A stretch of 7,298 nucleotides of DNA, taken from IMG/VR virus record IMGVR_UViG_2582580984_000004; one strand, 5' to 3'. The position numbers and the translations under genes are program-made. This DNA is from a virus. Its lineage: Duplodnaviria; Heunggongvirae; Uroviricota; Caudoviricetes. How positions within the stretch are numbered: position 1 is the stretch's first letter; each line of letters opens with the position of its first letter. Positions 2 to 4,961 of this stretch are shown in pieces. A model generated the notes under the pieces. It was given only the letters and a program-made list of their open reading frames with translations. It ran no database searches and had not been told where the DNA came from.

Positions 2-340
2 GCGTCTCCAGTAGAGTGGCTGACGGATAATGGTTCATGCTACCGGGCTAATGAAACACGGCAGTTTGCCCGGATGTTGGGGCTTGAACCGAAGAACACG
101 GCGGTGCGGAGTCCGGAGAGTAACGGCATAGCAGAGAGCTTCGTGAAAACGATAAAGCGTGACTACATCAGTATCATGCCTAAACCAGACGGGTTAACGG
201 CAGCAAAGAACCTTGCAGAGGCGTTCGAGCATTATAACGAATGGCATCCGCATAGTGCACTGGGTTATCGCTCGCCACGGGAATATCTGCGGCAGCAGGC
301 CAGTAATGGGTTAAGTGATAACAGGTGTCTGGAAATATAG
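2..340 (+). CDS. insD: IS2 transposase OrfB (InsD), C-terminal part; 5' end lies outside the window
   Basis: The frame is open from position 2 ([35 protein letters not shown]...) with no stop until TAG at 338-340. The ORF track shows only 74-340 because it starts at the first Met. The DDE-integrase C-terminal signature HPHSALGY is present. Confidence 0.9.
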
Positions 341-2683: not shown

Positions 2684-2894
2684 TGTTCAACCGCCCCGCC
2701 CGCTTCGTCTTACGATATTCGTCATAAACCTTGGGATCATACAGAAGCTCGCCGCCAGATGCCTCCTGTAGACGCATCGCGCGACCTTCAGGAACCAGCT
2801 CTTGCCATTGAGAAACAGCAGATGGGTCAACGCCAGCAGCTTTCGCTACTTTGGCTTTCGTACCGTAAAAATTAATTACGTCTGATTTAAACAT
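2667..2894 (-). CDS. dicC: Cro-type small DNA-binding regulator (DicC/YdaS-like), 75 aa
   Basis: ATG at 2894-2892 preceded by a strong SD (GGAGGT, ~4 nt spacing). Divergent from the DicA-like repressor across a ~77-bp operator region. The ORF-track start at 2921 is a TTG extension and lacks an SD. The symbol is assigned from position and size, not from a confirmed sequence match. Confidence 0.7.
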   Translation of the reverse strand: MFKSDVINFYGTKAKVAKAAGVDPSAVSQWQELVPEGRAMRLQEASGGELLYDPKVYDEYRKTKRAGRLNNENHS

Positions 2895-2971
2895 CGCACC
2901 TCCAATATTGAGTTTTCTCAATGCTAATCACTCAAGGAATCTCAAGTCAAGGGTTATTAAGATATCTAAAT
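2895..2971. promoter_or_regulatory. divergent control region between the dicC-like and dicA-like genes, with operator-like repeats
   Basis: Inverted-repeat operator ATTGAG-tttt-CTCAAT at 2907-2922; CTCAAG direct repeats at 2931-2936 and 2941-2946, plus TCAAGG at 2947-2952; candidate -35 TTGACT (minus strand, 2950-2945) for the leftward promoter. Confidence 0.55.
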
Positions 2972-3379
2972 ATGAACGAGAAAACTTTAGGTCAACGCAT
3001 TAGAGAAAGACGTAAGCAGGTAGGCTTAAGTCAAAACGGTTTAAGCAAAGCTGCTGGCGTATCTGGCTCATCAATTTCATTATGGGAAAGTGACCATACA
3101 GCCCCGCGCGGGCAAAATTTGCATCGCCTCGCCGAGGTATTGCAATGTTCACCAACCTGGATACTGTTTGGCGACGAGGACAAAACACCAGCTCCCCCTG
3201 TTTCACTCGATAGTGCCTTAGACTTATCGGAAGATGAGTTAGAGATGCTGCGTTTGTATCGCGCACTTCCTAAATCAGAGCAACAAGCACAACTCAGCGA
3301 ACTCCGCGCCCGCGTTGAGAATTTTAATCGCCTGTTCACCGAGCTATTAGAGGCTCGCAAACGCAACAAGCATCAATAA
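2972..3379 (+). CDS. dicA: DicA-like HTH (XRE-family) prophage repressor, 135 aa
   Basis: Translation MNEKTLGQRIRERRKQVGLSQNGLSKAAGVSGSSISLWESD... has a classical XRE helix-turn-helix. It sits immediately upstream of a ydfA-dicF-dicB-ydfD array and divergent from a Cro-like gene. The ORF-track start at 2921 would leave no intergenic space, so the ATG at 2972 is preferred; no obvious SD precedes it. Confidence 0.8.
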   Translation: MNEKTLGQRIRERRKQVGLSQNGLSKAAGVSGSSISLWESDHTAPRGQNLHRLAEVLQCSPTWILFGDEDKTPAPPVSLDSALDLSEDELEMLRLYRALPKSEQQAQLSELRARVENFNRLFTELLEARKRNKHQ

Positions 3380-3417
3380 TCATCCCTTCACAAAATTTTA
3401 AAGCCTTACATTTCAAT

Positions 3418-3442
3418 GTATTGGCTTTATCTTGCGCCAATA
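3418..3442 (+). terminator. possible weak intrinsic terminator or attenuator hairpin downstream of the dicA-like gene
   Basis: Perfect 8-bp stem GTATTGGC/GCCAATAC with a 9-nt loop, followed by ttgagttttctc (U-rich but interrupted); it abuts operator copy O2. Confidence 0.3.
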
Positions 3443-3443
3443 C

Positions 3444-3495
3444 TTGAGTTTTCTCATCAAAAAACCTTGACGAAAAATAATGAGAAAACTAAATT
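3444..3495 (+). promoter_or_regulatory. putative repressor-controlled promoter of the dicB-type operon, flanked by two operator copies
   Basis: -35 TTGACG at 3467-3472, 17-bp spacer, -10 TAAATT at 3490-3495. Operator copy TTGAGTTTTCTCAT at 3444-3457 and an inverted copy aaTGAGAAAACTaaat at 3479-3494, both matching the 2907-2922 operator. Confidence 0.5.
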
Positions 3496-3571
3496 ACTTC
3501 CATCAAGACACCGCACGGTGTTCTCAGCAAACAGTTCCGCTACCCCGGCGTTAAGGGGAAATGAGGTCAGC

Positions 3572-3724
3572 ATGGATACTATCGATCTTGGCAACAGCGA
3601 ATCTCTGGTATGTGGCGTGTTCCCCAACCAGGACGGTACGTTCACCGCGATGACATATACCAAAAGCAAAACGTTTAAAACCGAATCTGGCGCGCGTTGC
3701 TGGTTAGCCAGAAACACTGACTGA
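3572..3724 (+). CDS. ydfA: small protein, 50 aa, YdfA-like (first gene of the dicB-type operon)
   Basis: ATG at 3572 preceded by GAGG with ~5 nt spacing; size and position match ydfA of the Qin dicB operon. The ORF-track start at 3416 is an unsupported upstream extension. Confidence 0.6.
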   Translation: MDTIDLGNSESLVCGVFPNQDGTFTAMTYTKSKTFKTESGARCWLARNTD

Positions 3725-3735
3725 TGAGGCTGACG

Positions 3736-4101
3736 ATGGAATTTAAAGATTTACCGTCTGATGTACAGAAAACAGCAGCTCATACATTGCATTCTGTGCT
3801 GCGAGAAATCGGGAAAGATATTGCAAGCGAGCCAGCAAAAGATCTGGCCCGGAAAATCAAGACCGCTTTCGTTGAGCTTTATAATGTTGGCACTGACTCT
3901 GAAACTGTCGAGACCAAGACCGTAAGTTCACCAATATTCTCACTTGAGCCAGGCGTATTATCAGGTGAAATATGCACCGAGATTTCCAGCGAACTGCTTC
4001 CGGTAATACGAGAAGCAATTTGCCGTCGCGGTTTGGATGGAAGTTACGATCATGACGTCCTGCAAGTTCTCAGGACAATGGTGACTTCACTGGGGATTTG
4101 A
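3736..4101 (+). CDS. hypothetical protein, 121 aa (the position of ydfB/ydfC in the Qin operon)
   Basis: ATG at 3736 preceded by GAGG (3726-3729, 6 nt spacing); an alternative ATG at 3724 overlaps the upstream stop (TGATG). Acidic protein; no family recognised. Confidence 0.6.
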   Translation: MEFKDLPSDVQKTAAHTLHSVLREIGKDIASEPAKDLARKIKTAFVELYNVGTDSETVETKTVSSPIFSLEPGVLSGEICTEISSELLPVIREAICRRGLDGSYDHDVLQVLRTMVTSLGI

Positions 4102-4270
4102 TCCCTGCGTCCTCTAACCTTTTGATATAGCGGTCCTCCAAGAAGCGGTAAATTTTGTCGAAATCATCTTTCCCCTCTGGTTTATTCAGAGGATTACAGG
4201 ACCCGTAAGTAGCGGCATACATTTCAACCGTTTTATCAAAAATATAAGAGACAAATTCTTCTTTAGTCAT
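4070..4270 (-). CDS. hypothetical small protein, 66 aa, convergent with and overlapping the 3' end of the 3736-4101 gene
   Basis: ATG at 4270-4268 preceded by AAGAAGGAAAT (SD-like, ~8 nt spacing). Translation MTKEEFVSYIFDKTVEMYAATYGSCNPLNKPEGKDDFDKIYRFLEDRYIKRLEDAGIKSPVKSPLS has a globular-protein-like composition. The plus strand has no ORF across 4102-4270. Confidence 0.45.
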   Translation of the reverse strand: MTKEEFVSYIFDKTVEMYAATYGSCNPLNKPEGKDDFDKIYRFLEDRYIKRLEDAGIKSPVKSPLS

Positions 4271-4545
4271 ATAGATTTCCTTCTTGGTTATTCGGGATAA
4301 GAAGGATACCACCTCGCCTGACGTGGTTAAAAGCAGGCATACAACACGAAAGCGCACGGCGAAGTTCGTCTCACTGTACGGTGTCGTTAAATTTAATTCG
4401 ACCGTGCGCTTCCGGTTGTGGCAACCCGCGAAATGGCGCGGCGGTAAGTATGGCGGGGTTATTCCTTCCCCGTTGAGGACACCGAGTTGTCAGGTTGACC
4501 ATACGCTTAAGTGACAACCCCGCTGCAACGCCCTCTGTTATCAAT

Positions 4546-4603
4546 TTTCTGGTGACGTTTGGCGGTATCAGTTTTACTCCGTGACTGCTCTGCCGCCCTT
4601 TTT
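4546..4603 (+). ncRNA. dicF: DicF small regulatory RNA (antisense regulator of ftsZ), about 53 nt plus U-tail
   Basis: Sequence tttctggtgacgtttggcggtatcagttttactccgtgactgctctgccgccc-ttttt matches DicF as I recall it; it lies just upstream of dicB as in Qin and ends in a GC-stem plus U-run terminator. Ends are approximate. Confidence 0.75.
4561..4603 (+). terminator. DicF 3' intrinsic terminator
   Basis: GGCGG (4561-4565) pairs with CCGCC (4593-4597), with an inner CAGT/ACTG pairing, followed by cTTTTT (4598-4603). Confidence 0.65.
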
Positions 4604-4772
4604 AAAGTGAATTTTGTGATGCGGTGAATGCGGCTGAGCGCACGCGGAACAGTTAAAACCAAAAACAGTGTTATGGGTGGATTCTCTGTATCCGGCGTTA
4701 ATTGTTAACTGGTTAACGTCACCTGGAGGCACCAGGCACCGCATCACAAAATTCATTGTTGAGGACGCGATA

Positions 4773-4961
4773 ATGGAAACGTTATTACCAAACGTTAATA
4801 CGTCTGAAGGTTGTTTTGAAATTGGTGTCACTATCAGTAACCCTGTATTTACTGAAGATGCCATTAACAAGAGAAAACACGAACGGAAGCTATTAAATAA
4901 AATATGCATTCTTTCAATGTTGGCCCGTTTACGTCCGATACAAAAAGGATGCTGGCAATGA
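4773..4961 (+). CDS. dicB: DicB cell-division inhibitor (MinC-dependent), 62 aa
   Basis: ATG at 4773 preceded by GAGGA (4761-4765, 7 nt spacing). Translation METLLPNVNTSEGCFEIGVTISNPVFTEDAINKRKHERKLLNKICILSMLARLRPIQKGCWQ matches DicB in length and, as far as I recall, in sequence. The ORF-track start at 4668 is an upstream extension. Confidence 0.8.
   Translation: METLLPNVNTSEGCFEIGVTISNPVFTEDAINKRKHERKLLNKICILSMLARLRPIQKGCWQ

Follow-up and report, generated by a model that had tools for sequence, protein, structure and literature searches.

A 66-codon gene antisense to a dicBF-type prophage operon: selection on its protein, co-inheritance with a convergent domain, and a slot shared with other antisense cargoes

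Classical morons carry their own promoter and their own terminator. In pore-forming colicin operons, a small immunity gene lies on the opposite strand directly after the toxin's variable C-terminal domain; it is constitutive while the main operon is repressed, and its product is a membrane protein. Slots comparable to the one described here have time and again been found to store functions that act against phages or modulate the host. In phage lambda, sieB (34482-35036, plus strand) is encoded on the opposite strand within the pL operon and converges on N (35037-35438, minus strand). For P22, control of sieB by the antisense RNA sas and by a self-protection product, Esc, has been described (PMC12197685, PMC7067206). 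The small RNA DicF, in turn, is processed from a polycistronic dicBp transcript (PMC10448788).

We analyzed a minus-strand open reading frame (ORF) of 66 codons in a 7,298-nucleotide stretch of caudoviricete DNA (IMG/VR record IMGVR_UViG_2582580984_000004), referred to here in its entirety as the window. The DNA comes from a lambdoid prophage of the Qin/mEp460 type and covers its immunity and early-left region. A first-pass annotation, made from the letters alone, had placed the ORF inside a dicB-type operon, and this label is correct because DicF, DicB, and YdfD/DUF1482 all follow. The features, in gene order, are listed below.

First in the gene order, minus strand: Cro-like gene and YdaT-like gene
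2921-3379, plus strand: DicA-like repressor gene
3467..3495, plus strand: promoter-like site TTGACG-17-TAAATT, downstream of the DicA-like repressor gene
Between the DicA-like repressor gene and the 125/121-aa gene: DUF1391/YdfA gene
3724/3736-4101, plus strand: 125/121-aa gene, from the ORF listing
3736..3939, plus strand: backbone part of the 121-aa gene, encoding the N-terminal domain (MEFKDLP...AFVELY) and the linker
3940..4101, plus strand: partner domain, residues 73-125 of ORF 3724-4101, the predicted C-terminal helical hairpin of the 121-aa protein
4070..4101, both strands: dual-coding overlap of 32 nt, in which KSPVKSP (66-aa protein tail) is antisense to MVTSLGI (partner)
4070..4270, minus strand: 66-aa coding sequence, ATG 4270-4268, stop 4072-4070
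4278..4306, minus strand: leader hairpin 1, with 5' arm TCCTTCTT (4306-4299), 13-nt loop, and 3' arm AAGAAGGA (4285-4278)
4303..4338, minus strand: conserved junction element, common to all cargo types
4547-4598, plus strand: DicF small RNA (Rfam RF00039, 76.7 bits), downstream in the same plus-strand operon
4773-4961, after DicF: DicB
After DicB, last in the gene order: YdfD/DUF1482

The promoter-like site at 3467..3495 is likely the equivalent of dicBp. A transcript from this site must traverse the antisense of the 66-aa gene (4070-4306) before it reaches dicF, and no terminator was predicted on either strand within 3300-4800. DicF was the sole Rfam match in the window, and the Rfam search did not find it near the divergent homologues L003, L005, L006, L011, L067, and L074. 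Upstream of DicF, window positions 4348-4359 and 4402-4413 (plus strand) form a long stem, GAAAGCGCACGG ... CCGTGCGCTTCC, located where the RNase III cut for the 190-nt DicF species is expected (~4409); compensatory changes preserve its pairing in L011 (CACTCC/GGAGTG) and L067 (GCACAC/GTGTGC). Between dicF and dicB, a minus-strand promoter-like sequence, TTAACA-16-GAGAAT (9/12; 4708-4681), points antisense to DicF, and a transcript from it would complement DicF and head toward the 66-aa gene.

The minus-strand ORF with a Shine-Dalgarno motif and an ATG start was confirmed as annotated, running from 4270 to 4070, with AAGGA at 4282-4278, 7 nt from the ATG; its product is MTKEEFVSYIFDKTVEMYAATYGSCNPLNKPEGKDDFDKIYRFLEDRYIKRLEDAGIKSPVKSPLS. 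Its overlap with the plus-strand gene, put at ~30 nt in the first-pass annotation, is 32 nt (4070-4101), since the 125/121-aa ORF ends at 4101. Because this overlap is dual-coding, conservation within it is not assignable to either strand. Beside the gene, the plus strand is indeed free of ORFs, with none of ≥30 aa in 4102-4270. The ORF listing extends the minus-strand frame to 4070..4357 (95 aa, counted from a GTG at 4357). This longer form was ruled out: the ATG at 4270 is the conserved start, used by the homologues, RefSeq, and the PHROG profile alike, with MT(K/N)EEF as the opening residues, and the added upstream part is a conserved noncoding leader.

RefSeq carries the protein at the same place in strain GPEC1035 as a "hypothetical protein" (WP_000159335.1), and it matches PHROG 34441 (phrog_34441) end to end (E value 1.5e-50, residues 1-66 of 66), a family with no function assigned. 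The functional phage mEp460_ev081 has an identical copy of the gene. The first-pass annotation did not recognize the protein, rightly in that no relative was found in Pfam, NCBIfam, PADLOC, or solved folds. What it missed are these existing hypothetical entries, the strict linkage to the C-terminal domain of the overlapped gene, and the place of the gene among many alternative cargoes of a sieB-type antisense slot. In the literature searched, no paper mentioned the protein accessions or ECs_2282. An ArcA-regulated "sRNA-17" of mEp460-like prophages has been published (PMC7719688); it was rejected as the mRNA of the 66-aa gene, as its sequence (primer table, supplement) is absent from the window.

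Length alone is no evidence that the ORF is coding, because the six frames of the window contain 32 ORFs of ≥60 aa, most of them spurious. Conservation is more informative. Full-length homologues were retrieved at 91, 88, 73, 57, and 54% identity, together with a 73-aa relative at about 40 to 47%. The family forms 19 clusters among 5.8 billion proteins and gives 13 matches among 1.84 billion representatives in a profile search, and every member resides in an Enterobacterales prophage. All divergent pairs gave dN/dS values of 0.08 to 0.33 (Nei-Gojobori) and a third-position excess; the window and Cedecea, for instance, show 12, 14, and 28 differences at codon positions 1, 2, and 3, respectively. 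Synonymous changes also occur within the invariant N-terminal motif. In a six-frame control, the annotated frame alone was stop-free, with 2 to 10 stops in each of the others; its pN/pS was among the lowest in all pairs and, in the two pairs that diverge most, clearly below that of every other frame. One frame, the mirror frame that shares third positions, came close and was slightly lower in one pair but contains 4 to 6 stops. In Cedecea, an ORF reads through the region in antisense; it was rejected as coding because the most variable sites fall at its second codon position. Among near-identical Escherichia coli alleles, approximately eight nonsynonymous versus three synonymous changes were counted, which is close to neutral. 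Judged by these sequence comparisons, the reverse-strand ORF of 66 codons is a genuine protein-coding prophage gene maintained by selection, one of the two possibilities raised in the first-pass annotation.

That annotation would have abandoned the gene if the ORF were broken in closely related prophages while the plus strand was conserved. Across 33 distinct sequence contexts, the ORF is broken in 4 or 5, by IS1, by IS2, by a frameshift (one 1-nt deletion), or by an early stop two codons before the end, and these disruptions, as ordinary decay in cryptic prophages, do not refute the gene. At least two of the broken contexts have IS1 at nt 46-47 of the ORF, and IS2 interrupts it once (L007). 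The IS1 copies lie at the same point, equivalent to window 4224-4225, in several independent contigs, among them L068 (4018), L069/L070 (~nt 46-47), and H1 (NZ_AP028869.1), so that nt 46-47 looks like a local insertion hotspot. In L002 (strain 500010), where the gene is unannotated, a 1-nt deletion in a TTT run (alignment A1, column 323) shifts the frame; either a true mutation or a sequencing error in the homopolymer would explain it.

The 66-aa protein is predicted to be a small, soluble two-helix hairpin with a disordered tail. AlphaFold2, given a seven-sequence alignment, returned a model with a pLDDT of 82.8 in which helices 3-22 and 31-54 are joined by a loop and followed by a low-confidence tail. 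The protein has a single cysteine and no hydrophobic segment. Scans of the protein and its partners against Pfam, NCBIfam, and PADLOC gave nothing above threshold, and Foldseek against the PDB found no match to the model with an E value below 4, which is expected for a bare helical hairpin. Across Pfam, NCBIfam, PADLOC, and Foldseek, the protein showed no similarity to defense, toxin, or regulator families. Membership in Zn_ribbon_16 (PF21957) was rejected (14.3 bits versus a cutoff of 27, E value 0.04; one cysteine), as was membership in the SieB family (PF14163), for which there was no Pfam profile match and which does not suit a predicted soluble protein lacking a hydrophobic segment.

The gene does not travel alone. 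Wherever both are detectable, every 66-aa homologue adjoins the ~50-aa partner domain, encoded convergently, which in the window forms the C terminus of the 121-aa protein. AlphaFold models this protein (pLDDT of 58) as two helical hairpins, 8-49 and 77-118, separated by a disordered linker, and its N-terminal ~50 residues are also found with other C termini and other cargoes. In Cedecea, the partner is a stand-alone ORF flanked by cro and a cII-like gene (60% identity, E value 7e-20), and in two metagenomic prophages it is the C terminus of a 129-aa protein whose gene immediately follows that of an S24-type repressor (L005 versus the window partner, 36% identity, E value 5e-7). In all, the same convergent arrangement recurs in four contexts, with 3' ends overlapping by 29 to 56 nt across loci; without exception, the partner is encoded in the direction of the early operon around it, with the 66-aa gene on the opposite strand. 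In L074, the most distant relative, this geometry is kept with a 63-aa convergent gene, for which homology to the partner domain was not detectable.

Linkage between the two parts is strict, as would be expected of a toxin-antitoxin or immunity pair. Partner searches were carried out by tblastn against phages, by local tblastn, and with the full 121-aa protein; the 53-aa domain used as the sole query in a word-index search returned no match. In local tblastn, all partner-bearing loci (83/83) also had the 66-aa gene, and loci with the 66-aa gene alone were either disrupted by insertion sequences or too diverged for partner detection. Of 50,697 phage records, the single one to contain either part, mEp460_ev081, contains both. 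Selection also acts on the partner domain, whose pN/pS is 0.30. Together, the 66-aa gene and this domain form a two-part cassette, co-inherited wherever both are detectable.

Upstream of the 66-aa gene, the leader of the window folds into two hairpins with the Shine-Dalgarno motif paired (-20.7 kcal/mol, z score of -1.96). The 3' arm of hairpin 1 contains this motif, and hairpin 2 (ACCAC 4308-4312/GTGGT 4323-4327) lies within the junction element. Across cassettes, the 5' arm of hairpin 1 opens with T(A/T)TCC and the 3' arm ends with GGAA(A), while the inner stem varies yet stays complementary, as expected of covariation: TCCTTCTT/AAGAAGGA, ATCCTTAAAAT/GTTTTAAGGAT, TCCTTTTAAGT/ACTTGAAAGGA, TCCTCT/AGAGGA, and TTCTCGT/GCGAGAA. 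Two leader types can be distinguished. In type A, represented by the window, the 3' arm is the Shine-Dalgarno sequence and the ATG follows at +38-40; in type B, a TATAAT box and a second copy of the loop sequence lie in between. Both place a -10-like hexamer (TATCCT or TATAAT) ~32 nt before the ATG. In type B leaders (L077, L094, L106, L109, L122, L134, and others), the hairpin precedes TATAAT and a direct repeat of the hairpin-loop sequence flanks the -10 (e.g., TTCCCCAAC.., TTCCACAGTCAA, and ACCCCTACAG); this repeat could be operator-like or a recombination scar.

A promoter-like pair, TTAACC (4330-4325) and TATCCT (4308-4303) separated by 16 nt, matches 8 of 12 consensus positions, which is below the scanner threshold; a promoter scan of 3300-4800 reported no minus-strand promoter in the stretch of the 66-aa gene. 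We regard this pair as a candidate weak promoter of the gene. Transcription starting after TATCCT would leave the 5' arm of hairpin 1 outside the mRNA.

In megablast, the sequence rightward from 4302 is common to 4319 of 5426 complete E. coli genomes, whereas the 66-aa cassette to the left of it is present in 386, which is the variable presence among close relatives that characterizes morons. The 30-nt element 4309-4338, sought as an exact match in viral contigs, was present at >120 loci, in which the element (minus strand) is followed immediately by different minus-strand ORFs in different prophages. The cargoes, all on the minus strand, are as follows.

66-aa gene of the window
106-aa three-helix membrane ORF, L076 2147-2467 (E. 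coli E24377A, NC_009801.1)
66-aa zinc ribbon of the ECs_2282 family (WP_001092153.1)
SieB homologue (PF14163, 49.9 bits; phrog_1301/6399)
Coiled-coil zinc-ribbon proteins of 136-167 aa
ORFs of 42-148 aa

The 11 cargoes examined, the 66-aa gene included, fell into ten distinct family assignments, and SieB alone has a known function. As such, the slot holds at least 10 unrelated minus-strand genes behind a conserved two-hairpin leader (4278-4338). Relatives in Serratia, Enterobacter, and a metagenome have the same N-domain gene with other C termini, each with another convergent small ORF (3'-end overlaps of 26, 77, and 131 nt), and at least the Serratia and metagenome loci have the same leader. 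K-12 Qin has ydfB and ydfC instead, and the conserved junction element is absent from it.

Among described systems, sieB offers the closest positional match. Like lambda sieB, the 66-aa gene is antisense and converges on an early gene, here the second early-left gene, and in other prophages this very slot, preceded by the same leader, is filled by a true SieB (PF14163). The sas and Esc products of P22 provide a precedent both for antisense control and for a phage-encoded self-protection factor (PMC12197685, PMC7067206). The complementarity typical of cis-antisense regulation of the sas/OOP kind is present here, between the 66-aa gene and the dicBp transcript (4070-4306). However, SieB is a membrane protein of ~180 to 190 aa, whereas the 66-aa protein is a predicted soluble helical hairpin with no similarity to it in sequence or fold, and the putative self-protection partner is a separate convergent domain rather than an in-frame truncated product. 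The exclusion phenotype belongs to SieB, and the 66-aa gene is likened to it by position alone; by analogy, SieB in the same slot is a weak guide to function.

Other comparisons are similarly partial. The cassette resembles a moron in its variable presence among otherwise near-identical prophages (386 versus 4319 of 5426 E. coli genomes), in its orientation opposite to the surrounding lytic operon, and in adjoining the immunity region. It differs in being two-part, in having only a weak, shared promoter-like site (8/12), and in that no terminator was found. The ECs_2282-family gene (WP_001092153.1) shares slot, strand, leader, and length (201 nt), with its ATG 38 to 39 nt past the conserved element. 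Its product is a Cys4 zinc ribbon of unrelated sequence, in contrast to the cysteine-poor helical hairpin, and no partner domain lies beside it. Relative to the colicin arrangement, the 66-aa protein is predicted to be soluble, the context is a phage rather than a plasmid, and the 121-aa protein has no known toxin activity. At best, by such analogies, the 66-aa gene would be a sieB-slot moron that stands outside SieB and any named family.

Taken as a whole, the observations are best explained by a moron-type gene in the sieB slot that is expressed in the lysogen, has a protective or host-modulating role, and is both silenced and countered by the early-lytic transcript encoding its partner, a reading to which we assign a probability of roughly 55%. 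The sequence context suggests that the prophage probably expresses the 66-aa gene, whose partner would be an early-lytic product. In the repressed prophage, the gene would be transcribed independently from the weak junction promoter TTAACC-16-TATCCT, and the leader hairpin that pairs with the Shine-Dalgarno motif may modulate translation. The 66-aa protein would then act as a protective or host-modulating factor of the lysogen, of the exclusion or abortive-infection kind. Once the DicA-type repressor is lifted, the dicBp transcript, the source of DicF and DicB, would cross the complement of the entire 66-aa gene. It would thereby form a perfect duplex with the 66-aa mRNA and shut the gene off, much as sas RNA acts on P22 sieB, while also serving as the message from which the partner domain is made. 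When the phage itself grows lytically, the partner might neutralize or redirect the 66-aa protein, plausibly through a four-helix heterodimer of the two; any such interaction is conjectural.

Three other readings were weighed. The roles within the pair may be reversed, such that the variable C-domain of the 121-aa protein is an effector and the 66-aa protein a constitutive inhibitor, as in an antidote/immunity or toxin-antitoxin-like pair, following the logic of the pore-forming colicin operons. The strict co-inheritance of both parts suits this arrangement, as do the predicted helical hairpins of both the 66-aa protein and the partner domain, and a plus-strand gene that combines a constant N-domain with hypervariable C termini, each overlapped by a different convergent small ORF, is what such a pair would lead one to expect. 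We nevertheless consider it unlikely: no toxin-like motif was seen and PADLOC, Pfam, and NCBIfam gave no match, and since the plus-strand gene of several other cassettes stops after the N-domain, the variable C terminus is not a general effector. Rather improbable, in our estimate, is that the antisense transcript itself is the conserved function and the peptide secondary, with convergent transcription from the junction either dampening a leaky dicBp or triggering RNase III decay of the dicBF precursor, keeping the toxic DicF and DicB silent in lysogens. All cargoes do share an orientation and a conserved leader, the 66-aa gene is fully complementary to the operon transcript crossing it, and RNase III already processes the dicBF precursor (PMC10448788). 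Yet interference needs no cargo diversity, K-12 Qin controls dicBF with neither an antisense gene nor the junction element, and purifying selection acts on the amino acid sequence while synonymous sites turn over. Because the protein sequence is under selection, transcriptional interference, which the first-pass annotation had offered as its other possibility, is not the whole story.

The third reading is that the ORF arose by chance or is a shadow of plus-strand coding and not a gene. Many spurious ORFs of similar size occur in the window, the plus-sense partner ORF of Cedecea reads through the whole region in antisense, and recent polymorphism is near neutral, all of which would fit. Against this, the ORF has stayed open at about 40 to 91% identity in several genera, with dN/dS of 0.08 to 0.33 and 2 to 10 stops in each other frame, and the Cedecea read-through frame has the most variable sites at its codon position 2; this reading is effectively refuted.

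The 66-aa ORF itself is a minor hypothetical gene already present in databases, and its context is more useful. The slot is compact and easily recognized, adjoins the immunity region of Qin/mEp460-type prophages, is present in some form in ~80% of complete E. coli genomes, and is a place through which prophages exchange small lysogen-oriented genes. Its cargoes are small enough for annotation to miss, as with the 106-aa membrane ORF in E24377A. Since the antisense gene lies inside the DicF precursor, cargo expression could influence DicF and DicB output in carrier strains, which are many, unlike K-12, where dicBF regulation was worked out. In the literature searched, we found no description of three features, all of them computational: the invariable pairing of the gene with a convergently encoded domain, the leader shared among cassettes, and the range of cargoes at this slot in dicBF-type prophages. 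A bolder generalization, which we hold only tentatively and think doubtful, is that the junction at 4278-4338 is a plug-and-play platform, an undescribed hotspot of at least 10 to 17 antisense cargoes silenced upon induction by operon read-through, with the 66-aa protein and the 121-aa C-domain as an exclusion/self-immunity pair. If true, this hotspot would be a property of dicBF-type lambdoid prophages of Enterobacterales, with SieB as one cargo and small zinc-ribbon, coiled-coil, and membrane proteins as the remainder.

Several further observations concern the slot and its surroundings. The 106-aa ORF, with three hydrophobic helices, has the same leader (10- to 11-bp hairpin) in ~30 viral contigs; it is not annotated in RefSeq (E24377A) and is overlapped by a plus-strand ORF of 205 aa. 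A fragment encoding the C-terminal part of an IS2/IS3-family transposase (74-340, plus strand) is located at the window's left edge, beside prophage replication genes. ydfC behaves as a separate plus-strand insert of ~365 nt, with the conserved junction element on one side and the RNase III stem on the other (L073 2540-2905; L072 2106-2324); ESY002 and K-12 have it, and the window lacks it. Finally, the Serratia locus L198 has tandem antisense cargoes at 2769-3014 and 3100-3291 (minus strand), a 63-aa zinc ribbon and an 81-aa protein, each with its own Shine-Dalgarno-pairing hairpin; the slot can therefore hold more than one cargo.
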